DNA of 64,000 bases from Escherichia coli (lineage in GTDB: Bacteria > Pseudomonadota > Gammaproteobacteria > Enterobacterales > Enterobacteriaceae): assembly GCF_024298765.1 (NCBI RefSeq), contig NZ_CP101210.1; one strand, 5' to 3'. Position 1 is the first letter of the stretch. Each line of letters opens with the position of its first letter. Below, piece by piece: positions 4,738 through 23,581 of the stretch. The notes under the pieces are model-generated. The model ran no database searches. It saw only the letters and a list, made by a program, of their open reading frames with translations, and was not told the DNA's origin. A program made the position numbers and the translations under genes.

Positions 4738-5538
4738 TTAACCGCGCTTCGCCTTCTGCGTCGCGGTGGTTTTTCGTGTTGCAGGCTTCCGCGTTGTCTT
4801 TTTACTTTTGCTGCTTTCGTTCTGCGCCTGTGGTGTGCTGGCATCTTCTGGTGCGGCTGCGGAATCGGCTTTTTTCAGAGCGCGGGAAAGGGTTGCAATC
4901 TCGCGTTTCACACCTGCGTTCGGGTTCAGGTGCATCGCTTCGCGCAGCAGCTTCAGTGATGAGGCCATGCTGTCCGCATCGCTCAGGCTACGGCGGGCAA
5001 AGGCGCACGCCTTGCATAATTTGGCTCGCACTTCGTCCGGCATATCCTGGTTGGCGACAATTTCCCAAAGTGTGTCCAGTGGTTCGATAAAGGCGGACAA
5101 ATCCGCGTCGGCATCCGTCCCGGCCTGCGTCAGTACCGGGTTGCAGATTTCTTCGGTCAGTACCGTGGCAGCAGTACGGCCAAAGTTATCCGGCATGATG
5201 AGGTTGTGACGGACCACATACGCACCAATACGCAGCGCAAGCGGAAGATCGCCGCAGTCAATTGCCCACACCATCAGCGTGGCAATCACTTCATCCTGCT
5301 GCCCGCCGTCAGCCTCCAGCGTTCCCTCAATCCAGCCGGAAAAGTCCGGCAACAACTCTTTTTTGATGGCGGCTTTCGCGCTTCTGGCCTGTACCCCCTT
5401 AAGTCGGGCCTGTGCCAGACGCAGACGATACAGCACCTCTTCATGCGCGGTACGCGCGGCGTGGTCCACGCCTTCATTCGCCCGGCCTGCGCGCTGTGCC
5501 ATCACGTTCTGCCAGTGTTGCTGTGCAGGAGTAATCAT
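4738..5538 (-). CDS. terminase small/endonuclease subunit (gpM-like)
   Basis: 266 aa; N-terminus and MPDEVRAKL segment match the remembered P2 gpM; lysine-rich C-terminal tail. Confidence 0.85.
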   Translation of the reverse strand: MITPAQQHWQNVMAQRAGRANEGVDHAARTAHEEVLYRLRLAQARLKGVQARSAKAAIKKELLPDFSGWIEGTLEADGGQQDEVIATLMVWAIDCGDLPLALRIGAYVVRHNLIMPDNFGRTAATVLTEEICNPVLTQAGTDADADLSAFIEPLDTLWEIVANQDMPDEVRAKLCKACAFARRSLSDADSMASSLKLLREAMHLNPNAGVKREIATLSRALKKADSAAAPEDASTPQAQNESSKSKKTTRKPATRKTTATQKAKRG

Positions 5539-5583
5539 TTTTTCTCTCCGTTACAGGCGGGCATGATGCCCGCCGTGAGTTGA

Positions 5584-6636
5584 TTAGCTGTCGGCGAACT
5601 TCAGGCCAGTGACCATCGCGCACTTGCCATAGTCTTCAACGACATAAGCGTCATTGATGGACTGGTAGGTGGCGATGCGGTTGTATTCCGGCTCGTCTTT
5701 CATCAGGCGACGCATTGTTCCTTTCTGCCAGTAAATCGACAGGTTATTGAACGAGGTGATCAGCATCGTTGAATCCGGGAAGAACGGCGCAAGGAATACA
5801 TCCAGCCCGCCAATGGCGCGCGATGACAGGATGAGCTGTCCGGCAAGTAATTCCGCATTGGGATTCTGGCCGCTGATGCTGTTCAGCACGGGCAGACGCA
5901 GCGAGTTAAACAGGTTGCGCCCCATAATCACCACGAGGTCGTCAGCTTCCTTGTGCCATTCATCCAGCAGGGATGAGCGCGCGTCCTGTACCAGTGCATC
6001 AGCGTTCGCATACTTACCCGCGTGCGCCACGGTGTTGTCCATGTTGCGGGAGGTCAGCGTCACGTCATTCATTACGCGCTCGCTGGCGTCGGTTCTGATG
6101 TGCTCCAGCCATCCCACGTTAACGTCCTGAAGCAGCTTGTTGGTGCTGAAGTTGGACTCATCTGCGTGAGACGTGCCGTTGAAACCGATCATGATGCGGT
6201 CAAGCGCCACCTGCCGGGCAATCTGTGTGCTGACGCGTGACTGAAAATCAGGGTGTGCCGCCCAGGCATCAAGCTGCGGATACGAAATAAACGTGTCGTA
6301 GTTCACCTGTTCGCACTGATATTTGCGGTTTTTCAGATCAACCACGTTATTCGGGTTACGGCGTTTTGTGCCGTCATAACTGGTATTCGTGCGCGCAATC
6401 GGCCCGGTGGTGTCCAGGAGGATTTTTTCGCCTTTCTGGTCGGTCACACCGAACACGTTAATTTTTTTTGTAAATTCAGTGCTCTCCTTTACTGCGTTTT
6501 CAAAACGCTGCTGCACCGAGGGTTCCACGGTAAATCGCGATACCAGTGCAGATACCGGGATGTTGTTAAGCGACGCCTGCTGCGCCATATAGCAACCCAG
6601 CTTGTTGCGGGTAATATCTGACATCACCAGATTCAT
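5584..6636 (-). CDS. major capsid protein (gpN-like); start may be an internal Met
   Basis: 350 aa; FTVEPSV and YVVEDY segments match the remembered P2 gpN. Confidence 0.85.
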   Translation of the reverse strand: MNLVMSDITRNKLGCYMAQQASLNNIPVSALVSRFTVEPSVQQRFENAVKESTEFTKKINVFGVTDQKGEKILLDTTGPIARTNTSYDGTKRRNPNNVVDLKNRKYQCEQVNYDTFISYPQLDAWAAHPDFQSRVSTQIARQVALDRIMIGFNGTSHADESNFSTNKLLQDVNVGWLEHIRTDASERVMNDVTLTSRNMDNTVAHAGKYANADALVQDARSSLLDEWHKEADDLVVIMGRNLFNSLRLPVLNSISGQNPNAELLAGQLILSSRAIGGLDVFLAPFFPDSTMLITSFNNLSIYWQKGTMRRLMKDEPEYNRIATYQSINDAYVVEDYGKCAMVTGLKFADS

Positions 6637-6659
6637 AAAAAATTTGCTCCTTTGTCTTA

Positions 6660-7496
6660 TCAGAAGTCAGCCAGTTGATCGGAGGCTGCGCCCGTTGCGG
6701 TGAACCGGTTCTGCGGATCGCCGTCCTGCGTGCGCAGTTTTTCCTTCAGTGCTGTCAGCTCTGTGGTCAGTAAAGTGATTTTCTGGCTGTCCTGCTGATG
6801 GCGGGTTTCCAGCGCATTAAAACGGTCGATAATGTCGGCCTGTGACGTTGCGACACCTTCCACCGCTTCCTGAATACGGGAGAAACTGGCGTCATCCGCT
6901 TTGCGGCCACGGCCAATAATCCCCATAACGCGGTTAAACCACTGGGTGCCTTCTTCCTGACGTTGTTCGGTGAGTTCGATAAGTTCTGACTCCATAGCGG
7001 CGGTAAACATCGCCACGTCTCCCTGCTGACAGTTGAATGTCATCAGTTGCATACGTTGTTGTGCCGCAAAGGCCAGACGTTCCGTGCCCAGGCTGGCGGG
7101 GGTGTCGGTCATTGCCAGCCCGCGCAGGTAAGGGCCTCCCGTGATGGTTGACTGTGGTTCCAGCTCAATACTGGAGTAAATTTTTTTACCATCGTTAAGC
7201 AGGGACATCATGCGAGCGGTCGGCTCAATTTCGGCATACAGTGCCGTGCGACCTGCCAGCGGGCCATCGGTTATGTCTTCGGTGCTCAACCCCACAACAT
7301 CGCCCATAGCGGAAAACTCGCTACCGGGGAGTGGTGACAAGATGTGCTCAATATTCACACGTGCACCATAAACGGACGGGTTATAACTGGTGGCGGCAGC
7401 TTTCAGCATGTCGCCGTTGATTTCGCGCCCGTCTGCCGTTACACCGGAGACAGCCACGCGAAACTTTTTGCGGGATGTCTTTTTTTCATTAGCCAT
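6660..7496 (-). CDS. capsid scaffolding protein (gpO-like)
   Basis: ATG at 7496 preceded by GAGGGG; begins MANEKKTSRKKFRVAVSG, similar to the remembered P2 gpO N-terminus. Confidence 0.8.
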   Translation of the reverse strand: MANEKKTSRKKFRVAVSGVTADGREINGDMLKAAATSYNPSVYGARVNIEHILSPLPGSEFSAMGDVVGLSTEDITDGPLAGRTALYAEIEPTARMMSLLNDGKKIYSSIELEPQSTITGGPYLRGLAMTDTPASLGTERLAFAAQQRMQLMTFNCQQGDVAMFTAAMESELIELTEQRQEEGTQWFNRVMGIIGRGRKADDASFSRIQEAVEGVATSQADIIDRFNALETRHQQDSQKITLLTTELTALKEKLRTQDGDPQNRFTATGAASDQLADF

Positions 7497-7650: not shown

Positions 7651-9402
7651 ATGATTCAGGACGCTTTTGTGCGCCAGCGTGCGCGACAACTTTACTGGCA
7701 GGGTTATCCGCCCGCAGAAATATCACGTCTGATGGGAATAAACCCGAACACGATTTATGCGTGGAAAAAACGCGACCAGTGGGATGAAACGCCACCCGTG
7801 CAGCGTGTCACGCAATCCATTGATGCGCGCCTCATCCAGCTTACTGAAAAACAGAATAAAACAGGCGGTGACTTCAAGGAAATAGACCTGCTGACACGGC
7901 AGCTTAAAAAGCTGCATGATGGCCAGCCGGATGTGATTGCCGCAGGAAAGAAAGGCCGGGCGAAAAAACTCAAAAATCATTTCACGCCGGAACAGATTGC
8001 CGCACTGCGGGAAAAAATCATCAGCAGGCTGGAGTGGCATCAGCGGGGCTGGTTTGACTCCCTGACCCTTTGCAGGGAAGCCGGGATACGTAACAGGATG
8101 ATCCTGAAATCCCGACAGATTGGGGCGACCTGGTATTTTGCACAGGAAGCACTGCTGATGGCGCTGCGTGACGATGTGGTGCAACCTTATCAGCGTAACC
8201 AGATTTTTTTGTCTGCGTCGCGTCGTCAGGCGTTCCAGTTTAAAAGCATTATTCAGAAGGCCGCGGCTGAAGTTGATGTGGAGCTGAAAGGGGGCGATAA
8301 AATCATCCTCTCCAACGGCGCAGAGCTGCATTTTCTCGGCACTTCTGCTGCGTCGGCACAGTCCTATACGGGCAATTTTTATTTTGATGAATTCTTCTGG
8401 GTCAGTCGCTTTGCTGAACTGCGCAAGGTGGCTGGCGCTATGGCAACCCTCAGCGGACTGCGGCGCACCTACTTCTCCACGCCATCCACCGAAACGCACG
8501 AGGCATACGCCTACTGGAACGGCGACCGCTGGAACGAGAAAAAGGCCACGCATAAACGCCAGCGTTTTTCTGTGGACTGGAAAACGCTGCATAACGGGCT
8601 TATCTGCCCTGACCGGACGTGGCGGCAAATTGTCACGCTGGAAGATGTGGTTAATCACGGCTGGAAACACACCGATATTGATGAAATTCGTGATGAAAAC
8701 ACCGAAGACGAGTTCCTCAATCTCTATATGTGTGAGTTTGTCCGCGAAGGGGAATCGGCATTTAACCTGAATATCCTGATTGGCTGTGGTGTTGACGGAT
8801 ACGACGACTGGAAAGACTGGAAACCTTTTGCTCCCCGCCCGATGGGGAATCGCCCGGTATGGATTGGGTATGACGCAAATGGCAGCAGTGGCAACGGCGA
8901 CAGCGGCGCTGTGTCCGTGGTGGTTCCTCCGGCTGTTCCTGGTGGCCGTTTTCGAACGGTGGAGACGCGACGCGTTCAGGGGCTGGAGTTTGAAGAACAG
9001 GCCAGAGTCATTGAAGAGTTCACGTGTCGCTACAACGTGGAACACATCGGCATTGATGTGACGGGCGGGAACGGGGAGGCTGTTTATCAGATAGTGAAAC
9101 GGTTTTTCCCTGCCGCTATTCCGTACACCTTCACGCTGTCATCAAAACGGTCGCTGGTACTGAAAATGCTGCAAATAATGCGTGCAGGGCGGTGGGAATA
9201 CGATCGCGCCGAACGCGAGCTGGTCGCGGCCTTTAACGCCGTGCGTAAGGTGAAAACACCGGGCGGCTTTATCACTTACGAAACGGACCGCGCGAGGGGG
9301 ATCAGCCACGGCGACCTTGCGTGGGCAACCATGCTTGCTGTCATTAACGAACCAATTGGCGGCGAAGGAGAAAACGAGCGTTTCACGGTTATGGAGTTCT
9401 GA
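7651..9402 (+). CDS. terminase large (ATPase) subunit (gpP-like)
   Basis: 583 aa, divergent from O, followed by portal with 1-nt overlap, as in P2 P-Q. Confidence 0.85.
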   Translation: MIQDAFVRQRARQLYWQGYPPAEISRLMGINPNTIYAWKKRDQWDETPPVQRVTQSIDARLIQLTEKQNKTGGDFKEIDLLTRQLKKLHDGQPDVIAAGKKGRAKKLKNHFTPEQIAALREKIISRLEWHQRGWFDSLTLCREAGIRNRMILKSRQIGATWYFAQEALLMALRDDVVQPYQRNQIFLSASRRQAFQFKSIIQKAAAEVDVELKGGDKIILSNGAELHFLGTSAASAQSYTGNFYFDEFFWVSRFAELRKVAGAMATLSGLRRTYFSTPSTETHEAYAYWNGDRWNEKKATHKRQRFSVDWKTLHNGLICPDRTWRQIVTLEDVVNHGWKHTDIDEIRDENTEDEFLNLYMCEFVREGESAFNLNILIGCGVDGYDDWKDWKPFAPRPMGNRPVWIGYDANGSSGNGDSGAVSVVVPPAVPGGRFRTVETRRVQGLEFEEQARVIEEFTCRYNVEHIGIDVTGGNGEAVYQIVKRFFPAAIPYTFTLSSKRSLVLKMLQIMRAGRWEYDRAERELVAAFNAVRKVKTPGGFITYETDRARGISHGDLAWATMLAVINEPIGGEGENERFTVMEF

Positions 9403-10448
9403 TGAGCAGAAAAAATAAAAAAGTGCGCATGAGTTCACGCATTGATCTCGCTGATGCGCTCAGGAAAGAATCATCGCTCAGTGCATTCACATTTGATGGT
9501 CCTTATCGCCTGACCGGGCATGACCTGCTGGACAATATGTACTGTGCTGATAACGGGCGGTGGTATGAAACCCCGGTGGACTGGTACGGTCTGGCAAGAG
9601 CCGCCCGGCAAACGTCCTGGCATCAGTCTGCGCTTTACTTTAAGCGCAATGTATTACTCGGTTGCTACATCCCGCACCCGCTGCTTTCCCGGCAGGATTT
9701 CTCGGCGCTGGCGCTGGACTGGTTTGTGTTCGGTAACGCATTCCTTGAGCTTCGGAGCAATATGCTCGGCGAACCGCTTAAATTACGGCACGCCCTGGCG
9801 AAATACATGCGACGCGGAAGCGATCTTGAATCATGGTGGTATGTGCAGGATGGCAAGGACGCGTTCCAGTTTCGCCCTGGCAAAGTGTGCCACCTGATGA
9901 ATCCGGATATTAACCAGGAAATCTACGGCATGCCGGAATATCTTGGCGCATTACTCTCGGCCAGCCTTTCTCATTCGGCGGACATGTTCAGAAAACTGTA
10001 CTACGACAACGGATCCCACGCCGGGTGCATCATCTACATCGGTGCAGCGCAGGTAAACCGCGAAAGCATGGACTCCCTGAAAGAAACGTTACAGGGTGCG
10101 CGTGGTGGTGGTGCATTTAAAAACGTGCTCATTCATGCGCCCAACGGGGGCAAAGAAGGGGTGCAAATTTTGCCGTTCCAGCAGATCACCGCAAAAGATG
10201 AGTTCATGAATGTTAAGGCGGCATCCCGTGATGATGTGCTGGCTGCGCACCGCGTTCCGCCGCAACTGATGGGGGCGATGCCGGGCGAAAAAAGTGCGTT
10301 TGGTGATGTGGAGAAGGCCGCGCGGGTTTACGCAATTAACGAGCTGATGCCCGTCATGGAGGCCATGAAGCACATCAATGACTGGCTTGGCGAAGAGGTG
10401 ATCCGCTTTAACCCTTACGCACTGTTAGACACCCAGCCCACATCCTGA
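9402..10448 (+). CDS. portal protein (gpQ-like)
   Basis: 348 aa, size and position match P2 gpQ; last morphogenesis gene before the cos/cargo region. Confidence 0.85.
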   Translation: MSRKNKKVRMSSRIDLADALRKESSLSAFTFDGPYRLTGHDLLDNMYCADNGRWYETPVDWYGLARAARQTSWHQSALYFKRNVLLGCYIPHPLLSRQDFSALALDWFVFGNAFLELRSNMLGEPLKLRHALAKYMRRGSDLESWWYVQDGKDAFQFRPGKVCHLMNPDINQEIYGMPEYLGALLSASLSHSADMFRKLYYDNGSHAGCIIYIGAAQVNRESMDSLKETLQGARGGGAFKNVLIHAPNGGKEGVQILPFQQITAKDEFMNVKAASRDDVLAAHRVPPQLMGAMPGEKSAFGDVEKAARVYAINELMPVMEAMKHINDWLGEEVIRFNPYALLDTQPTS

Positions 10449-10978: not shown

Positions 10979-12358
10979 ATGAAAAAAATCAATAAAGAAG
11001 ATTCTAAAAGAACCTTTTTACGTGGATGGTTGCGATTTCTTCGTAGCGTTGAGAGAGCTAAGAAAAAAAAGCCTGCGCAAGAGAAAAATGGTAGTCTTCG
11101 TTTTTCCGATGAAACAACTCCTGTCCAAAACCAAGTCGCTACGTTCATTGAAAATATATCGATTATAAAAGAGTATGACTCATCAATTCTTCGTCGTGAC
11201 GCAGAGAAGATATTAATACCTAAATATTTTGACTTATATGACAATCCAGAGAAATCTCTGCTATTTATTAGTGCAGCCACAAAATTAATTGCAAGAGGTA
11301 AATGGAAATCATATATTTTTGATTACAAGAAAAACAAAAAACACTGTCTTGGTCTTGAGTGTCTATTAGGTGTTGCTCTTACAGCAGCAAGGCAAAGTAA
11401 TATAAATTTCAAAGATACGATGATTCAGATTAATGGTATCTACCCTAAAGATGAACAGTATCTTGAAATTATCAGGGATGTCGGGCTTGTAAAAGAGATT
11501 AGTAATGCTGCACCAGGTAAAGTTCTGGACTCTACTGAAGCATCGAAAAAAGCGAATCCGAAGAAACGAATCTTCTCTGCTGATAGTATCGGAAAGGAGA
11601 ATGCTTCTGCCTTTGCCCATGACAGAAAAAATGTCACTGCTGAAAAATTTACCGCATACATAAACGAATGCTTAAATGATCATAATTTAAAACTTGTACA
11701 TGAGGCAGAAAAGCATTTAACTTCCTGCATGGGGGAACTCCTTGATAATGCGGAGCGGCATTGTGGGTTAGAGCAACGCCCACGCTGGTATTTGAGAGGT
11801 TTTGTTAATAATAACGTACGAAACCCCATATGTGAGTTGGCTGTTTTCAATTTTGGGAAAACTATCAGCGAAACTTTTGATAATTTACCTGAGGATCATT
11901 TTTCATTAAGTCAACAAGTTAATCCATACATAAATAAGCATATTAAGAAAAAGGGTATGTTTAAGGAAGGATTAACAACAGTAGCGGCCTTGCAAGGGCG
12001 GGTGAGTTGTAAAAACGAGAAAGAAACTGACAGTTCTGGCACCGGAACAATTGAATTATTGAAGTTATTTCAAGATATGCATGATAATCTTAAAAAAATG
12101 GGAAGAGATATTAAAGGTGGGATAAAAATGACTTTAATATCTGGTAGTACTCATATTAACTTTGATGGATCATATAAATTAAAGCAAAGGTTGGTTAATG
12201 ACGAGGAAAGTGACATTTTTACTTACCCTTTTAATGATGTAGGGCTTGAATCTGAACCGGATCGCAACTATCTTAAGCGTATGAAGGATGCTCGATTTCC
12301 TGGAGTTATGATCAATATTCGTTTTCCTCTACCAGAAAACGCCACCCAGCGAACTTGA
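10979..12358 (+). CDS. cargo gene 1: GHKL-type ATPase / anti-sigma-factor-kinase-like protein, 459 aa from ATG 10979
   Basis: N-box-like ELLDNAERHCG, possible degenerate G1 (FNFGKT) and G2 (SSGTGT) boxes; AT-rich; AGGAA 8 nt before ATG; the track start at 10883 is a TTG. Confidence 0.6.
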   Translation: MKKINKEDSKRTFLRGWLRFLRSVERAKKKKPAQEKNGSLRFSDETTPVQNQVATFIENISIIKEYDSSILRRDAEKILIPKYFDLYDNPEKSLLFISAATKLIARGKWKSYIFDYKKNKKHCLGLECLLGVALTAARQSNINFKDTMIQINGIYPKDEQYLEIIRDVGLVKEISNAAPGKVLDSTEASKKANPKKRIFSADSIGKENASAFAHDRKNVTAEKFTAYINECLNDHNLKLVHEAEKHLTSCMGELLDNAERHCGLEQRPRWYLRGFVNNNVRNPICELAVFNFGKTISETFDNLPEDHFSLSQQVNPYINKHIKKKGMFKEGLTTVAALQGRVSCKNEKETDSSGTGTIELLKLFQDMHDNLKKMGRDIKGGIKMTLISGSTHINFDGSYKLKQRLVNDEESDIFTYPFNDVGLESEPDRNYLKRMKDARFPGVMINIRFPLPENATQRT

Positions 12359-12368
12359 GGACAGGTAC

Positions 12369-12713
12369 ATGAAAATGGCTGACATCACCATAGATTTCAA
12401 TAAGTTAGTAAAAGATAGTAACAAGAAACTTTTTGCTGGACGTTCTAATGGGCGCCAGGCCTATGATTACTTTAATATAGGGAAATTTTGCACAACCAGT
12501 AATGATAGATTATATCTATTGATCCCCAAGGGAATTGTTGTATCAAGCTCATACTTTCTAGGTATGCTTGAAACGGTTTTGCCGAAATTTTCTTCGCCTA
12601 GCGAATTTTATAGTCGCACTGTACTTGATGGTCGTGAATATAAAGAAGGTATGCTTTCTGAATTAGATAGAGCTGTAAGGAGAGGCTTACATAAAAATGT
12701 TCCCTTCTTTTAA
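12369..12713 (+). CDS. cargo gene 2: small STAS-like (anti-sigma-factor-antagonist-like) protein, 114 aa
   Basis: GAGGA 8 nt before ATG, overlapping the stop of gene 1; segment LLIPKGIVVSSSYFLGMLETV recalls the SSSF-type STAS-like signature. Confidence 0.55.
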   Translation: MKMADITIDFNKLVKDSNKKLFAGRSNGRQAYDYFNIGKFCTTSNDRLYLLIPKGIVVSSSYFLGMLETVLPKFSSPSEFYSRTVLDGREYKEGMLSELDRAVRRGLHKNVPFF

Positions 12714-13506
12714 AAATATTTTTCAAATCAAAATGACAGCGCTGTCTGTCATTTTTTTTATATTCCCCGCAGCTTGCTCTGTGACAGATTTTTCCAATAA
12801 AGAAAACATTGAATGTAATGAGTCACTTTATCCAAACACGCCTTTTTATATTTCCGATTCAGGACTTAGTGGTATATCATCACCGTTTTTGTTATCCGGA
12901 AACCCGAATGATGGCTTGATGTTTTGTGAAAAGGCAAACGACACCTTTCATAAGTTATCTCTGGCAAGGGATAACAAAAAAGATTTATTTACTAATTATT
13001 TCAAAGATGTTCCAAATTCCTATGATATATATAATATTGTAAAGGTTCCGGAAAATGGTCCAGAGTGGATTTCTATTGGCATCTCTTTATTTGCTTTAGT
13101 TTCATCCTTTGTTATTCCTTGTGTTCAACATAGAAAAGAACGTAAAGAAGCTATTAATGAAGGGTATTGGGTAAGAGAAGTAATTATGCCTAAAATTAAT
13201 GGGTTGGCATTCGATGTTGTGCAAAGTTTTAAAAACTCCATGGCATTATCAGAAGAGGAGTTTCTTAGTGTATTCAGTAATACTCTTTTACCAAAACTAG
13301 GAGAGTTACGGGATTCATTATATTTGTTTAATAGTTTTCCAGAATTAAATGCAGATATTGAAAATCTAGAAAGTATTTGTGACTCCTTGGAGGAAGAAGT
13401 TTCCAATCATATAGACTCGCCTAATGAAATAAGAATTTCTGATATATCAATGTTTCATTCCAAATTAATACAGAAATTAATTTTACTTCATAAGAAGATA
13501 GGTTGA
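12697..13506 (+). CDS. cargo gene 3: membrane protein, candidate effector (N-terminal signal/anchor, one internal TM, acidic C-terminal domain)
   Basis: Overlaps gene 2 by 17 nt; hydrophobic N-terminus TALSVIFFIFPAAC and TM WISIGISLFALVSSFVIPCV; AT-rich. Confidence 0.6.
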   Translation: MFPSFKNIFQIKMTALSVIFFIFPAACSVTDFSNKENIECNESLYPNTPFYISDSGLSGISSPFLLSGNPNDGLMFCEKANDTFHKLSLARDNKKDLFTNYFKDVPNSYDIYNIVKVPENGPEWISIGISLFALVSSFVIPCVQHRKERKEAINEGYWVREVIMPKINGLAFDVVQSFKNSMALSEEEFLSVFSNTLLPKLGELRDSLYLFNSFPELNADIENLESICDSLEEEVSNHIDSPNEIRISDISMFHSKLIQKLILLHKKIG

Positions 13507-13551: not shown

Positions 13552-16344
13552 CTATCGTGTTCGATGCAATAAACTGATTTTTTTGCGAGCATGTTTAGTG
13601 GTTTCACTGATTCTCTGTGCGTGCTCTGCGTCGCGGATGGCGCGCAGCATGTCAGAAAGTACGGTAACGGGTGTTTTCATGGTGTTCTGGTCTTGCTGAA
13701 GTGTGGATGCCAGGCGTGCGGCGGCTTCAGGGTCTGATGCCTCTAGTTGTTCCAGATAGCTGGCGACCGGGTTATGGCGGATCTCCGTGCTGCTTACGCC
13801 GTGATTACGACTCAGGCGTTGCCAGAGCTGCGTGATTCGGCTGTCCGGGCGGGTATCCTGTTTGCGTACAATTTCAAATCCCTGCGGTGCAATGATGCTG
13901 CCGCCAACGTACAGACTGCCGCCTCGTAACAGGTGCTGCATCTGCTGTTCACCGATATGCAGGCCGAGAGATTCAGCAGACTCCCGCCATTCTTTAGCGA
14001 GTAACTCGTGGTTATCAGGCAAAGGCTGTGGCTGTTTGCGGCTCTGTGTCCAGTTCTGCATTTCATCACTGCTGTTTTTTGCCTGTTTGTCACGCAGCGA
14101 ACGCATCAGTGCCCGGCGTTCGTGCCGTTTCAGTGAGCGCATCCATTCATTCACGTCAACGCCTTCAGGAAGCCGCGGCCACGGTGCTGGCCGTTCTTCC
14201 GGCTGTTCTGTCCCGTTGTTGTCCGTTTCCTGTACACGGGGACAGTTATTGCCACGAGTCCAAGGGGCGGCAGGGCCGCCCTGAAGGTCAAAACCATTTT
14301 CGCGGGCGCTGTCTTCCGTTTCCGGTTTACGTCTTACCAGTTTCCAGTTATCCGGATGCGTGCACACACGGGAGGATTCCCCGATGAGTGGTGACCAGAT
14401 CCCGTAAATCTGTACGCTCTGTTCGCCGTAATCATTCAGCTCATCTGCGAGGTCGTAGGCGGTGCGAATCAGGTAGTCTTTGCGTGGAACAAGTACGCCG
14501 CCCTGTTTTTCAATGTAGGTGGCAAAACACCCGGCATCGGCGGCAGCGAGTACCGCATCCATTGCGTCATCTTTCAGTCGTTGCGGGCCTTCCGGGTTGC
14601 GTGCCATCTGGCTGGCAAGGCGGCGCAGTTCACGCCACACCTGACGGGAGGGGATGCCAAAGAACTGGAACTGGCGGACCCGATGAAGGCGCGCCCAGCC
14701 GATGGCGCGCTCCACACTCTCGGCCATTGATTTTCCGGTTTCGTGGTCAACGCGTGGCTTGCCCGTTTTCGGGTCGATGCCATCCACGGCGCGGCTGTCC
14801 AGGTTCTTTCCGATGTAGGTCGCGATATAGCTGGTTGGTGTGCCTTTTGAGCCGTCGACATACTCCGCCTTAAAGCGCGGAGTAATATCATTGCCCAGCT
14901 CGTGGCGGTCTTCCTGAATGGCAATATCGCGGGTGATGGCCACGATGCTGTCGATTTCTTCCGGATGAGCAAAGACCATCATATGCCAGTGCACGGTGCC
15001 GTCATGGTGAGGCTCCACCGTGCGGATGCCATACCAGCGAAGACCGTCGCGGTTCAGTTTTTTGCGGACCGCCGCAAAAAACGTGTTAACCAGGTAATCG
15101 CTGGAGTCGCGCATGGTGGCCCCGTTCCATTTGGGATTCGGATGACCGTTCTCTGTTGTGGCGTGGTATTTTGACGGGCAGGTGACAGTCAGAAACACCG
15201 CTTTGTCGCCACGGGCTTCGGCCAGAAGTTCCAGCCCCTTCATGGTGGCCATCATTTCTGCCTTACGGTGAACCGGGTTACTTACTCCCGCGTAATACAC
15301 CGTCTCGAGATCAATCGTGAACCCGTCTTCGTTTTCCAGCATGAAACTTTTCAGGAAATCGCGTGTTTTCTCGCGCTGTGCGCGAAACTCGCTTAACGCG
15401 TCCTGGCTCAAATAGGGCGATGTTTTTCTGGAAACCAGACAGGCGGCGCGGAGTTGTTCTTCTCTCCACTCGCAACGTAACAGCCACAGTTTGCGTTTCC
15501 ACCATTCCGCACAGGTCAGGCGAAGGATTGCGCCCGGCAGCAGTTCTGTGTCCGGTTCGTTCCTCCGGTCTTTGTCTGTTGTCAGTGCGTCATAATGCGG
15601 AGGCATGGCGTGCAAGTGTAACGCCATGCGGGCCAGCATCTGATACGCCTTCAGCGTTACATCCATGGTCAGCTCGCCATCGGTCGCGCCAAAACCATCG
15701 CAGAGTTTTTCGAAGGTGCTGCTGAACATCGCCGCCGTCATGGTGGCCAGCGTCTGTATCTGGTGTTTGTTGAGTTGCGGCAGGTAAAGCAAATCGTCCA
15801 GGCGTTCACGTCCGGCAAGGGACCGATAACCCGGTGTCAGCCAACGGCTGTCGGTGCGGTCCAGACGTACGAATATTTTGCGCAGGGTTCCGCGCGCGTA
15901 GCGTTCAGCCTGCCAGCTCTTTTTGCCTTTCTGACGATCGGATTCCTGTTTTTTGCGCAGGAAAGAGAGGTGGCGGCTCAGAGGTTCACGCAGATAAACG
16001 GGAAGCACCTTCAGTGTGGCAAAAGCACGGGCCACCGGGTCTTGTTCTGTTGCCTGACGCTTGCTGATGATGCTTTGTGCCAGCTTTTCACGCTGTCCGG
16101 CTTCCTCAAGGGATGCCATGAGTTTTTTACCCACGGTGGATTGTGCGAAAAAGGCTTCCTCCTTCGCTTCCTGTTCTTTCCGGGCCTTTTTGTCCGCCTC
16201 AAGGTAGTAACGGATGGCGCGTTGCAGCTCGGTTTCAGTTTCCTGCCTGCGCTCCGTAAATCTGTCCGGATCAATGGCTGGCCGTGGTTCATTCCAGCTC
16301 CATGCAAACTCACTCATGGCTGGTATCCCGTCACGCGCTGCCAC
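13552..16344 (-). CDS. replication initiation endonuclease (P2 gpA-like, rolling-circle HUH type)
   Basis: 930 aa with HWHMMVFAH HUH-type motif; position between early genes and cargo as P2 A. Confidence 0.8.
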   Translation of the reverse strand: MAARDGIPAMSEFAWSWNEPRPAIDPDRFTERRQETETELQRAIRYYLEADKKARKEQEAKEEAFFAQSTVGKKLMASLEEAGQREKLAQSIISKRQATEQDPVARAFATLKVLPVYLREPLSRHLSFLRKKQESDRQKGKKSWQAERYARGTLRKIFVRLDRTDSRWLTPGYRSLAGRERLDDLLYLPQLNKHQIQTLATMTAAMFSSTFEKLCDGFGATDGELTMDVTLKAYQMLARMALHLHAMPPHYDALTTDKDRRNEPDTELLPGAILRLTCAEWWKRKLWLLRCEWREEQLRAACLVSRKTSPYLSQDALSEFRAQREKTRDFLKSFMLENEDGFTIDLETVYYAGVSNPVHRKAEMMATMKGLELLAEARGDKAVFLTVTCPSKYHATTENGHPNPKWNGATMRDSSDYLVNTFFAAVRKKLNRDGLRWYGIRTVEPHHDGTVHWHMMVFAHPEEIDSIVAITRDIAIQEDRHELGNDITPRFKAEYVDGSKGTPTSYIATYIGKNLDSRAVDGIDPKTGKPRVDHETGKSMAESVERAIGWARLHRVRQFQFFGIPSRQVWRELRRLASQMARNPEGPQRLKDDAMDAVLAAADAGCFATYIEKQGGVLVPRKDYLIRTAYDLADELNDYGEQSVQIYGIWSPLIGESSRVCTHPDNWKLVRRKPETEDSARENGFDLQGGPAAPWTRGNNCPRVQETDNNGTEQPEERPAPWPRLPEGVDVNEWMRSLKRHERRALMRSLRDKQAKNSSDEMQNWTQSRKQPQPLPDNHELLAKEWRESAESLGLHIGEQQMQHLLRGGSLYVGGSIIAPQGFEIVRKQDTRPDSRITQLWQRLSRNHGVSSTEIRHNPVASYLEQLEASDPEAAARLASTLQQDQNTMKTPVTVLSDMLRAIRDAEHAQRISETTKHARKKISLLHRTR

Positions 16345-17317: not shown

Positions 17318-17431
17318 TTATTCGCCAGTGAAAAAGCGGTCAATCTTTTTTACTGAACGAATAATTCGCATAATCCCAATGGCGCAGACCACCGAAATAA
17401 TCAGAACAAGCCATGAGATAAATATACTCAT
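17318..17431 (-). CDS. small hydrophobic membrane peptide (37 aa)
   Basis: ATG at 17431 overlaps the stop of the upstream ORF (ATGA); MSIFISWLVLIISVVCAIGIMRIIRSVKKIDRFFTGE is a single TM helix with a basic tail. Confidence 0.35.
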   Translation of the reverse strand: MSIFISWLVLIISVVCAIGIMRIIRSVKKIDRFFTGE

Positions 17432-17670
17432 GCAATATTCCCCAGCTTATACGGTTCAATATGCTCCCCGCATTCTGCGGCACAGATCAGCTCGGAAAGT
17501 TCGTTAAGTGCATCCAGATCATCAGCGTAAAAAGCCACGTCATACAGACTCCGGATTGCCCTGGTTAATGAGTCACGGGCTGCACGTTCAGCATGAGTAC
17601 CTGATGCACTTAAGCGAAAATAAAAACGCTCAAGTGCTTTGTTTATGAGAGTCTTATATTCTTTGCCCAT
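17428..17670 (-). CDS. hypothetical phage early protein
   Basis: 80-aa ORF in the early operon. Confidence 0.5.
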   Translation of the reverse strand: MGKEYKTLINKALERFYFRLSASGTHAERAARDSLTRAIRSLYDVAFYADDLDALNELSELICAAECGEHIEPYKLGNIA

Positions 17671-17682
17671 CGCAACGCCCTT

Positions 17683-17959
17683 TAATCTGCTTTCTGAATT
17701 TCAGCTTCTGAATCCATGCAGATAATTTCGATATAGGGTTCATCGCCATTAACCTGACGAGCTTTTTCAGCTTCGTTAATTATTTCGCGAACGGTCTGGT
17801 ACGGAAGTTCTACTGTCAGGCGCGTACCGTTCAGATAAACGTAGGTAGCTGCATTTTTTCAGATGGAACTACTCCGTCAATAGCTGATGCGCGTAATAAC
17901 AGTTCACCGCGAAAATCAATAAAGCGGATAAATACACCTTGTGCATGGTCTTTAGTCAT
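17683..17959 (-). pseudogene. small early gene (about 92 aa if repaired) interrupted by a 1-nt frameshift in an A6/T6 run
   Basis: ATG at about 17959 gives 41 codons then stop; an out-of-frame continuation with no start codon runs to TAA at about 17683; adding one A in the homopolymer near 17854-17859 joins them. Confidence 0.4.
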
Positions 17960-17969
17960 AAAGCACCTG

Positions 17970-18320
17970 TTATAAATCAGCCTGTTTAATAAAACTTTGC
18001 CCGCGAAGCAAACGATCGACTGTGCGCAGTGCTTCGTACAATGTAAAATCCTGCCCGAACTGATTATCGCCGTTGCTTAATGCAAAAATGCGGTTTCCGG
18101 TAAACGGATTGCGTGAGCATCTGTGAACCACTATTCCAGCTTTCTCAATCAGCCAGGTGTGTTCGCCGATTTGTTTTACAGCGTGCCCATCTGGTGTTGC
18201 GTGCGTCTCGTTCAGGTTATAGCGATTGTTACTACGTGATGCACTGGTAGCGACGTGGTGTATATGGCGTTCTACGCCATTACGAAATTTGGAGTATGGA
18301 TTATTAGCGTGTTTTTTCAT
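17970..18320 (-). CDS. hypothetical phage early protein
   Basis: 116-aa ORF in the early operon downstream of the cox-like gene. Confidence 0.5.
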   Translation of the reverse strand: MKKHANNPYSKFRNGVERHIHHVATSASRSNNRYNLNETHATPDGHAVKQIGEHTWLIEKAGIVVHRCSRNPFTGNRIFALSNGDNQFGQDFTLYEALRTVDRLLRGQSFIKQADL

Positions 18321-18341
18321 GATGATGCTCTGTTCATTGTT

Positions 18342-18545
18342 TTAGCTGTTAGCCAAAGCGTCTTTTAACATCGCCACAAGGTTTACTTCAGGCTTTTCCA
18401 TTTTGGCACGTTTGGGGCGGATAATAATTCGACCGTCAGCCAACATCTTTTTGCATGTATTAAGAGGGATACCTGTTATCTCTGCATATTTCTGCAGGGA
18501 TACATAGGGGGCATTCACATTGATATTGATGGTTATACCTGACAT
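18342..18545 (-). CDS. Cox-like small DNA-binding protein (excisionase/early regulator)
   Basis: 67 aa; YVSLQKYAEITGIPLNTCKKMLADGRI resembles the Cox-type helix-turn-helix pattern; position in the early operon. Confidence 0.55.
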   Translation of the reverse strand: MSGITININVNAPYVSLQKYAEITGIPLNTCKKMLADGRIIIRPKRAKMEKPEVNLVAMLKDALANS

Positions 18546-22369: not shown

Positions 22370-23581
22370 TCACCCCACTTCTGGTAACAACCCTGCCGCA
22401 ATCAAAAATTGCACGCCAATCACAGCAATACCACAGAGAAACACCACCACCAGCGCCGGACGACCACCTTTGACCCGGTAACCCGCCTGAGGATTGTGCT
22501 TTCTGCTTTGCCAGGTCAACAGCGAAGGGATAATCAATGCCAGTACCGCCAGCGCCACACCGGCGTAACCCAGCGCCATCACAAATCCTCGTGGATAAAA
22601 CAGTGCAAACGCCAACGGCGGCAGAAAGGTAATTGCACCAGTTTGCAATCTTCCACCAACGGTATTTGAACGCTGAAACAAATCTGCCAGATAATCAAAT
22701 AAGCCTAACGCTACGCCGAGGAAGGACGTGGCGAGGGCTAAATCAGCAAATAAATGCACTGCCAGCTCAACATGCGGAGAGGCCACCATTTCGCGTAACG
22801 CCTGTAACAGCCCGTTTAATCCGGCATGATTAGCCAGCAATCCCATAAAGGTTGTTGAATCAATGCTGCCAAGGGTCGCCAGCTGCCAGAAAATATATGC
22901 CACCAGGGGGATCGCACTACCGATTATAAACACCCAGCGTAGCTTACGAATGTTGCCATCCATATAGCTGACAATACTCGGCACGCTACCGTGAAAACCA
23001 AACGACGTAAAAATCACCGGGATTGCAGACAGTGCCAGTCCCTGTTGCAACGGCAGGGTTAAAAGATTCACTTTGTGAATATGCGGTAGCAGCAATACCA
23101 GCATCACCACCAGAAAAATAATTTTGGCGCTGAACAGAAAACGGTTAAATAAATCGACCAGCGATGTCCCGACACAAACCACGCCACCGGCAACAAAAGT
23201 GAACAACAGCACGCCAGCGGTTGCCGACATTGAAATACCTGTCCAGTCGCTGATGCTGGAGGCCAACAATTCACCGGCACCGCTGATGTATGCCGCAGTC
23301 AGAGCATACATTAAGAACATCATACTGAAGCCCGTCAGCCACTGACCGTAGCGTCCCAGATAGCGTTTTGCCAGCGTGCCCAGACCGGTATCTGCCGGGA
23401 CATGCTGGTACACCTCCAGTAGTAATAGCGCCGTGTAGCACATCAACGCCCAAAGCCCAATCAACAAGATTAACGTGACGCTAAAACCAACACCTGCCGC
23501 AGCCAGCGGCATTGCCAGCATGCCTGCGCCAATTGTGGTTCCCGCCACGATAAAAACACTTCCCAGAGTTCTGTTTTTCAC
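22370..23581 (-). CDS. tyrP: tyrosine-specific transport protein
   Basis: 403-aa polytopic membrane protein; sequence and context as E. coli tyrP. Confidence 0.9.

Follow-up and report, generated by a model that had tools for sequence, protein, structure and literature searches.

Within a 64,000-nucleotide stretch of an Escherichia coli chromosome (NCBI RefSeq assembly GCF_024298765.1, contig NZ_CP101210.1; hereafter, the window), the RefSeq annotation delineates a P2-like prophage inserted upstream of dmsA. Here, we report an analysis of a 2.6 kb cargo island of this prophage (positions 10979-13506) that has a GC content of about 36%, compared to about 52-57% in the flanks, and consists of only three genes, all on the plus strand, which we denote K (gene 1), S (gene 2) and T (gene 3). 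The island occupies the cos-proximal locus that is bounded by the portal gene Q on the left and by the replication endonuclease gene A on the right, a P2 hotspot for anti-phage cargo where old and tin reside in P2 itself (Rousset et al. 2022). All three products are named ‘hypothetical protein’ in RefSeq. We find that the K-S-T cassette is a widespread, unannotated variant of the systems that couple an anti-sigma-type kinase to a small STAS protein, with a membrane protein as the third component and an atypical nucleotide pocket, in a validated defense hotspot.

Two recently described systems provide the framework for this analysis. CapK (HTH-STAS-GHKL, where HTH stands for helix-turn-helix) is switched on by single-stranded DNA (ssDNA), which binds between the STAS and GHKL domains, and phosphorylates Ser54 of CapS, a fusion of STAS with a winged helix-turn-helix (wHTH), resulting in de-repression of downstream immune operons (Chambers et al., EMBO J 2026, PMC13373217). 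The second system, VapKSC, comprises VapK (STAS-GHKL), VapS (STAS with a short tail) and the PIN toxin VapC, and protects against phage Bas42; Ser48 of VapS is the proposed phosphorylation site, although direct VapK-dependent phosphorylation could not be shown (PMC13373217). The protein sequences used for comparison were those of Appendix Table S2 of the same work.

Organization of the cassette

The features of the cassette and its edges are listed in Table 1. The start of the K open reading frame agrees with that of RefSeq WP_000723541. The stop codon of K is separated from the start of S by 10-16 nucleotides, and S and T overlap by 17 nucleotides. For S, the sequence allows two starts: a GAGGA Shine-Dalgarno element, which overlaps the stop codon of K, lies 13 nucleotides before the RefSeq start at 12375 and only 7 nucleotides before the ATG at 12369, and because of this shorter spacing, S probably starts at 12369 (MKMADIT...). 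The same start of S is given in a table of Rousset et al. 2022.

Table 1. Positions of the features of the K-S-T cassette and its edges in the window
Feature	Position	Strand	Description
P2 portal gene Q	9402-10448	+	Left edge of the cargo hotspot; RefSeq annotation; GC drop from about 0.52 to 0.36 at the island
Gene 1 (K)	10979-12358	+	459 amino acids; basic N-terminal tail, STAS-like domain, SpoIIAB/RsbW-like GHKL domain
N-terminal extension of K	10979-11170	+	Residues ~1-64; poorly conserved, strongly basic; helix 6-28 in the AlphaFold2 model
STAS-like domain of K	11186-11593	+	Residues ~70-205; order beta-beta-alpha-beta-alpha-beta-alpha-beta
GHKL (Bergerat-fold) domain of K	11621-12355	+	Residues ~215-459; end is FPGVMINIRFPL (nucleotides 12296-12331)
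N-box of K, GELLDNAERHCG	11732-11767	+	Residues 252-263; E253, N257, H261
G1-box equivalent of K, FNFGKT	11846-11863	+	Residues 290-295; Asn291 where the canonical Asp is expected
ATP-lid motif of K, ALQGRVSCK	11987-12013	+	Q339 in 189/190, S343 in 188/190, K345 in 153/190; aligned to VapK WAFxxGNTT
G2-box equivalent of K, SSGTGT	12032-12049	+	Residues 352-357; N-terminus of helix 356-373 (AlphaFold2 model)
Gene 2 (S)	12369-12713	+	112-114 amino acids; DUF4325-type STAS-like; RefSeq start 12375
S motif SSSYFLG	12543-12563	+	S57-G63 (112-residue numbering); N-terminus of helix alpha-2; candidate phospho-acceptor S58/S59
Gene 3 (T)	12697-13506	+	269 amino acids; signal-peptide-like N-terminus, variable periplasmic segment, one transmembrane helix, conserved cytoplasmic helical domain
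Terminator-like hairpin AAAATGACAG/CTGTCATTTT	12730-12755	+	10-bp stem, 6-nucleotide loop, U-run; gene 3 codons 12-21; terminator scan
Transmembrane helix of T	13069-13125	+	Residues 125-143; Kyte-Doolittle 19-residue mean 2.26; equivalent in most of 19 homologs
Juxtamembrane motif of T, YWVREVIMP	13165-13191	+	W158 invariant; R160, V162, P165 at least 90%; 19 T proteins
P2 replication endonuclease gene A	13552-16344	-	Right edge of the cargo hotspot; RefSeq annotation

K is a divergent STAS-GHKL protein

A reading of the window made from sequence alone had assigned to K a GHKL-type ATP-binding core of the kind found in anti-sigma-factor kinases, in preference to a sensor histidine kinase, and structure prediction bears out this assignment. 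In the AlphaFold2 (AF2) model, the STAS-like domain lies immediately N-terminal to the GHKL domain in a single polypeptide. The segments of the GHKL domain, namely the N-box helix (residues 241-262), a beta-hairpin that ends in FNFG, two lid helices, the GTGT motif with which helix 356-373 begins, and a C-terminal sheet whose last segment is FPGVMINIRFPL, follow the order of the Bergerat fold and form its characteristic alpha/beta sandwich. Comparison of this model with known structures retrieved SpoIIAB, RsbW and UsfX as the best matches to the kinase domain, and there is no DHp domain or H-box. A separate part of the model matched the STAS domains of RsbV (score 8.7), TM1442 (8.2), SpoIIAA, RsbS, MlaB and SLC26 proteins. 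On the strength of the model, K represents a divergent member of the STAS-GHKL proteins, of the type of SpoIIAB/RsbW/CapK/VapK, and ATP binding with hydrolysis or phosphotransfer is predicted for it.

Sequence profile methods barely detect this relationship. The same sequence-only reading had proposed a search for HATPase_c with hidden Markov models (HMMs); no such domain was recognized in K, and the best Pfam match, with an E-value of 0.37, was to an unrelated family. Searches of K against NCBIfam and PADLOC yielded no match, and the sole match in PHROGs was phrog_3364 (E-value 2.4e-7), a family of unknown function. Profile searches of PDB sequences with the alignments of K, S and T retrieved only noise or designed helical bundles. 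When K was compared to one SpoIIAB sequence using hhalign, the N-box was correctly aligned, but the alignment was not significant and drifted afterwards.

The motifs themselves are distinctive. In the six-frame translation of the entire window (about 128,000 amino acids), the strict pattern E-x3-N-A-x2-H-x-G occurs once, at the N-box of K, with an expectation by composition of about 1.6e-4 per 459-residue protein. The N-box aligns with SEAVTNAIIHGY of SpoIIAB, SELIGNVRDH of CapK and WEIYxNAFEH of VapK. Conservation was assessed across 190 aligned members of the family, whose identity to the window protein is 23-92%. In the N-box, E253 and N257 are found in all 190 sequences and H261 in 189; in SSGTGT, both G354 and G356 are invariant and T357 is present in 179 of the sequences; and F364, G389 and N419 are also invariant. 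Because these residues are retained across 190 members down to 23% identity, the motifs of K are evidently under strong selection, as judged from the alignment. The sequence-only reading had named two outcomes that would refute it, a predicted structure without a Bergerat fold and motif residues that vary among homologs; both were checked, and neither was obtained. Profile alignment with VapK, in which SSGTGT pairs with the G2 motif RGLGL and FNFGKT with the G1 motif VVDFGxGIP, supports the further suggestion made from sequence that these are, respectively, a G2-like box and a degenerate G1 box.

The degeneracy of G1 pertains to its adenine-contacting residue. The canonical D-x-G-x-G signature, in which the Asp of characterized GHKL proteins makes contact with adenine N6, is not found in the K family: position 291 is Asn in 173 of the 190 sequences, Ser in 15 and Asp in a single one, whereas the equivalent position is Asp in VapK (the invariant D185), CapK, SpoIIAB and the K protein of a related P4 satellite cassette described below (IYDLGVGIP, aligned by hhalign). 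The remainder of the box is preserved, with G293 in all sequences and T295 occupied by Thr or Ser in 188. With the G1 Asp replaced throughout the family and the pocket otherwise invariant, K may deviate from known GHKL kinases in its nucleotide specificity or its catalytic status.

At the phospho-acceptor position of its own STAS domain, K contains HCLGLECLLG (nucleotides 11342-11371), with the family pattern H-C-L-G/A-x-E and without a conserved Ser. The N-terminal tail has a median net charge of +12 and contains 27% Lys+Arg (189 members), compared to a charge of -1 for the remaining protein, and its column conservation is only 0.10-0.26. Given that CapK is activated by ssDNA, it is a reasonable guess, by analogy, that this basic tail binds nucleic acid.

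S is a DUF4325-type STAS-like protein with an invariant serine at the phospho-acceptor position

Directly downstream of K, the cassette encodes a putative cognate STAS partner with Ser at the N-terminus of helix alpha-2. The AF2 model of S (pLDDT 90) retrieved 49 matches with E-values of at most 1e-3 in a Foldseek search of afdb50, nearly all annotated as ‘DUF4325 domain-containing protein’, with TM-scores of about 0.5-0.96, and the Pfam HMM of DUF4325 (PF14213) matched neither S nor any of 24 homologs. NCBIfam likewise yielded no match to S. Residues that are invariant among 24 S sequences include G22, N25, G26, S58, S59, Y60, G63, E96, R99, A100 and R103. The pattern [ST]-S-[YF]-F-L-G is retained in 21 diverse loci; in the most distant one, from Spirosoma, it becomes P-S-F-L, and the second Ser alone is retained. 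In the model, the helix formed by residues 58-65 comes right after strand beta-3 (residues 54-56). SSSYFLG thus matches the position of the phosphorylated serine in SpoIIAA, RsbV and CapS (S54) and of the proposed one in VapS (S48), although its alignment onto VapS S48 is weak. An hhalign comparison of S with the STAS domain of K itself also brought the starts of the two alpha-2 helices into register, at an E-value of 0.072 that is not significant.

T, a membrane protein whose cytoplasmic domain is conserved

Hydropathy analysis of T reveals two peaks, at residues 11-29 and 125-143, which correspond to the signal-peptide-like N-terminus and the transmembrane (TM) helix. The cytoplasmic domain begins with Y-W-x-R-E-V-x-x-P, and the T-like protein of Spirosoma contains the related WYKDLVITP. 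The periplasmic segment is hypervariable and is lacking altogether in the T proteins of three loci: L009 (176 amino acids), L031 (174) and Spirosoma (202). The TM helix and the cytoplasmic domain are retained in all members, and the complete absence of the periplasmic part from some of them argues that these two parts carry the core function of T. As regards T as a possible lipoprotein, the homologs are divided: several have a lipobox-like N-terminus, and others carry a signal peptidase I-type cleavage motif or none. In the window protein, the sequence FPAAC does not fit the PROSITE lipobox rule as we read it. No match to T was found in Pfam, PADLOC, NCBIfam or PDB sequences, and neither a PIN domain nor any other Pfam domain was detected across 19 homologs.

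The terminator-like hairpin within gene 3 has a folding energy of -9.9 kcal/mol (z -2.8). The same hairpin with its U-tract is found at the same place in five other loci (L016, L017, L019, L020 and L021), and L023 has a hairpin and T-run of a different sequence. In the alignment of the hairpins, 98% of the cells are paired, and two pairs are altered on both sides (A-U to G-C) within the coding sequence, although the sample is small. We treat this element as a lead: it may be an attenuator of T expression.

Linkage and distribution of the cassette

A word-indexed search with K yielded 59 homologs, and an exhaustive profile search extended the family to 1,189 clusters at 50% identity, 563 of these at E-values of at most 1e-30. 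Nearly all members among the best 150 of the 1,189 clusters are 400-480 amino acids long. The K, S and T genes are adjacent and colinear, in the same order, in all 36 loci analyzed (about 25 non-redundant), from Enterobacteria to Bacteroidota; the T homologs in these loci were identified by HMM, except for that of Spirosoma. The apparent exceptions to linkage are gene-calling artefacts, namely an uncalled S in L008 (7335-7629) and a truncated T in L004 (9729-10337), so that surveys based on called genes would under-count complete cassettes.

The most divergent cassette is located on the Spirosoma linguale plasmid pSLIN01 (Slin_6671-6673, positions 4803-7184 of locus L036). Its K protein retains the N-box, with FNFGDT, and hence Asn, at G1 and GNGT at G2; its S protein has the single Ser of PSFL. 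Both match the respective family HMMs. The third protein yields no match to the T HMM, so its assignment rests on architecture: it equals T in size, contains a TM segment and carries the WYKDLVITP motif. The presence of the cassette on this Bacteroidota plasmid indicates that the K-S-T family spans at least two phyla.

Across these genomes, the cassette resides in diverse mobile elements. Among 5,426 complete E. coli genomes, 23 carry it, and so do 20 viral contigs of IMG/VR, in 17 of which the cassette is flanked by homologs of both Q and A, as in the window. It was also identified in a lambdoid prophage, adjoining its CI-like repressor; on plasmids of Pantoea, Salinivibrio and Vibrio; and in metagenomic integrase islands that encode a type III restriction-modification (R-M) system. 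In Vibrio parahaemolyticus, the cassette adjoins genes of a type I R-M system and AAA_15, and in an Aeromonas veronii prophage, it is found near genes for a methylase, HNH, NERD and HipA. No K homolog was detected among the isolated phages of INPHARED. Searches of PADLOC-DB v2.0.0 with the window K, S and T retrieved no family at E-values up to 1, and 10 diverse homologs gave only two weak, unrelated PADLOC matches (E-values 0.004 and 0.013).

The cassette itself has been recorded before. System 19, ‘HATPase_c | DUF4325’, in Table S5B of Rousset et al. 2022 is this exact cassette, with identical proteins and 155 occurrences in E. coli P2-like hotspots, and the methods of that paper, which labels K as HATPase_c, name HHpred/HH-suite for domain calls. 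The domain call for K was thus already available in 2022 as a supplementary-table label, and the general class of mechanism was published in 2026. A P4 satellite system with the same name, ‘HATPase_c | DUF4325’ (system 69 of Table S1B), consists of a K protein of 368 amino acids, an S protein of 112 amino acids and a third protein of 166 amino acids with one TM helix (Rousset et al. 2022). Both entries are catalog labels only and receive no interpretation in that study, whose tables of cloned systems (Table S2) contain neither of the two by sequence or domain name. STAS, GHKL and DUF4325 are not mentioned in three recent preprints on such hotspots.

Relationship to known kinase-STAS systems

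K-S-T and VapKSC have several features in common. In each, three genes form an operon, with the kinase first, the small STAS protein second and a third protein last, and both are found in defense neighborhoods; VapK and K alike combine STAS with GHKL in this order without a DHp domain; and VapS and S are both proteins of about 110 amino acids that adopt a DUF4325-type STAS fold and carry a conserved Ser where alpha-2 begins. There are also differences. The third gene encodes the PIN nuclease VapC in VapKSC but the membrane protein T in the present cassette. K has 459 amino acids compared to about 297 for VapK: it possesses the basic 64-residue tail, and both its lid and its C-terminal sheet contain insertions. 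Where VapK has Asp at G1, the K family has Asn or Ser. VapK homologs match HATPase_c (PF02518) in Pfam, and VapS matches DUF4325 at an E-value of 2.7e-17, whereas the K family and S, the latter with the same class of fold as VapS, have no such Pfam match. Finally, S ends in a conserved E-x2-RA-x2-R helix in place of the C-terminal tail of VapS.

Direct comparison of the kinases yields only marginal similarity. A search with the K-family HMM gave negative bit scores for VapK and CapK, with the N-box alone aligned. Small alignments of K and VapK compared by hhalign were colinear but weakly similar (E-value 0.046), and an expanded comparison of 190 K with 120 VapK sequences gave an improved but still weak result (P-value 9.7e-4, probability 22%, 231 columns). 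This alignment pairs STAS beta-1, STAS alpha-2 (CLGLECLLG with FLRPNAVAFLGG), the N-box, G1 (VFNFGKT with VVDFGxGIP) and G2 (SGTGT with RGLGL). Because the STAS-GHKL kinase and the DUF4325-type partner are both present, sequence similarity is marginal and there is no PIN toxin, we classify the K-S-T cassette, by analogy, as probably working like VapKSC and not as a member of VapKSC.

The P4 cassette may link the two families. It has the same K-S-TM layout as the cassette in the window and differs in keeping the canonical G1 Asp. With either the window-family HMM or that of VapK, the P4 K protein obtains about 17 bits, and its hhalign probability against the window family is 53%. That it scores against both HMMs suggests that the window K, the P4 K and VapK belong to one loose superfamily of STAS-GHKL kinases.

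Other comparisons are more distant. As in CapK-CapS, the gene of a STAS-GHKL kinase is followed by that of a partner STAS protein with a Ser at the start of alpha-2, the residue that is phosphorylated in CapS. However, K has a basic, non-HTH tail where CapK has an N-terminal HTH, S lacks a DNA-binding domain equivalent to the C-terminal wHTH repressor of CapS, and no immune operon lies downstream, T being the sole other gene of the island. The SpoIIAB-SpoIIAA and RsbW-RsbV pairs differ from K-S-T in that the cassette encodes neither a sigma factor nor a PP2C phosphatase, a STAS domain is fused to the kinase, and the partner is of the DUF4325 type, not a canonical STAS protein; furthermore, those pairs belong to developmental or stress regulons, as opposed to a mobile-element hotspot. 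Abortive-infection systems with TM effectors, namely CBASS, Pycsar, Thoeris, retrons and the P2 AC1 ‘2TM+1TM+TIR’ system, likewise have a small membrane protein encoded at the end of a sensor-transducer operon that lies in a phage hotspot. Their effectors are triggered by nucleotide second messengers or by complexes of reverse transcriptase with msDNA, in contrast to the protein phospho-switch proposed here, and T has no sequence similarity to these effectors.

Two further candidates were rejected. The first is a system designated ‘hp+hp+hp’, which we take to be Rst_3HP of DefenseFinder. Identity with this validated P2 system (Rousset et al. 2022) was discarded because its three proteins are unrelated to K, S and T, and those of K-S-T do not occur in the tables that list the cloned systems. 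The second, VcSduA, a GHKL-Shedu protein of the WASA Vibrio paper, is likewise unrelated, with an architecture in which GHKL is combined with a DUF4263 nuclease.

A proposed phospho-switch and its alternatives

The analysis shows the fold of K and the conservation of its motifs, how S folds and that its Ser is invariant, the topology of T and which of its parts are conserved, the strict linkage of the three genes and their location in the hotspot. By analogy with CapKS and VapKSC, K would be an active kinase with S as its substrate, S would bind T, T would be toxic, and the cassette would respond to a trigger and have an anti-phage phenotype. With moderate confidence, we propose that K-S-T is a phospho-switch module of the toxin-antitoxin or abortive-infection kind in the Q-A hotspot, with a VapKSC-like mechanism. 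In the uninfected cell, S would be bound to the cytoplasmic domain of T, which is thereby held inactive. An infection cue, possibly nucleic acid recognized at the groove between STAS and GHKL together with the basic tail, as for ssDNA in CapK, would activate K, which would then phosphorylate S on Ser58/59 at the start of alpha-2. Phosphorylated S would dissociate from T, and the freed T would damage the inner membrane and so abort the infection. The overlapping gene arrangement, with the putative antitoxin before the putative toxin, and the hairpin in gene 3 fit a toxin that needs to stay scarce. The full scenario, a widespread abortive-infection system in which K, with its atypical pocket, phosphorylates Ser58/59 of S and thus frees a membrane toxin that is also limited by the gene 3 hairpin, we put forward more tentatively, as a possibility that falls somewhat short of probable.

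The replacement of the adenine-contacting G1 Asp by Asn or Ser throughout the K family speaks for a first alternative. Conceivably, K is not a protein kinase but a pseudokinase, a switch that acts by binding, with or without dependence on a nucleotide, or an enzyme for a nucleotide other than ATP; it would sequester S or T, as anti-sigma factors do with sigma factors, and effect partner switching without phosphorylation of S. The contrast with VapK, CapK, SpoIIAB and the P4 K protein, which keep the Asp, together with the failure of any HATPase_c HMM to recognize the domain, is compatible with such a role, and SpoIIAB-type proteins are generally known to act also by stoichiometric binding, as SpoIIAB does with sigma F. 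Nevertheless, the N-box Glu (the general base) and Asn (the Mg2+ ligand), the G2 glycines, Q339 and S343 are near-invariant down to 23% identity, the pattern of a working active site, and the invariant Ser of S is placed exactly at the phospho-acceptor position of STAS proteins. We consider a non-kinase K unlikely, and retain it mainly because of the G1 substitution.

The place of T in the phospho-switch could also be reversed. Under this alternative, T is a sensor or membrane anchor that detects adsorption, DNA injection or envelope stress and signals via S to K, which then acts on phage or host targets; or else, T blocks phage entry (superinfection exclusion). The signal-peptide- or lipobox-like N-terminus and the hypervariable periplasmic segment of T would suit a sensor, K has no domains beyond STAS and GHKL, and defenses based on a multi-target kinase exist, Stk2 being an example. 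However, it is the periplasmic segment that is missing from L009, L031 and Spirosoma, and the TM helix and cytoplasmic domain that are always present; SpoIIAB-type kinases are specific to their own STAS partners; and the third gene encodes a toxin in VapKSC, the closest characterized system. A sensory or entry-blocking T therefore appears about as doubtful to us as a K devoid of kinase activity.

The setting of the cassette bears on the anti-phage role itself. The Q-A hotspot also carries genes without a defense function, among them partition systems and the cytolethal distending toxin; general DNA damage elicits a response from related modules (Chambers et al., PMC13373217); and K-S-T is not known to confer a phenotype. 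The cassette could be a moron of the prophage with a regulatory role in some process of the host or the phage, for instance the maintenance of lysogeny, a stress response or an envelope response, or else an addiction module that stabilizes the element. Yet outside P2, the cassette recurs beside genes for R-M, AAA_15, HNH, NERD and HipA, it occurs in several unrelated mobile elements and in two phyla, and its closest relative, VapKSC, is anti-phage, all of which makes a role apart from defense improbable in our estimation. Finally, hardly any credence can be given to the idea that gene 1 encodes a sensor histidine kinase of the classical two-component kind, or else a DNA ATPase of the GHL type, as in the MutL, MORC and topoisomerase classes: there is no HisKA match, no helical hairpin precedes the GHKL domain, no response regulator is encoded in the cassette, K ends at the last strand of the Bergerat fold without a transducer domain, and in structure K clearly matches the anti-sigma kinases best.

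Implications

If the phospho-switch model holds, switches composed of an anti-sigma-type kinase and a STAS protein would gate membrane effectors, in addition to the transcription of immune operons (CapKS) and a PIN toxin (VapKSC), and P2-like phages would carry K-S-T for inter-viral competition. The K family is large, yet it has been missed by Pfam, NCBIfam, PADLOC and the RefSeq protein names. The proportion of P2 elements with only unknown genes at the main defense loci has been put at 19% (2026 preprint), and K-S-T would fill part of this unannotated cargo. The Asn or Ser at the G1 position of K also provides a natural test of nucleotide selection by GHKL pockets.

Other features of the prophage and its surroundings

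The integrase gene of the prophage (22437-23429, plus strand) is located directly upstream of dmsA, and the remainder of the window (23729 onward), which extends from dmsABC to mukFEB, is ordinary core E. coli chromosome. In the early-gene region of the same prophage, an SPFH-domain gene and a small hypothetical gene (approximately 17346-18376, minus strand) lie in a stretch of lower GC content (0.44-0.45), and these two genes may represent further accessory cargo.

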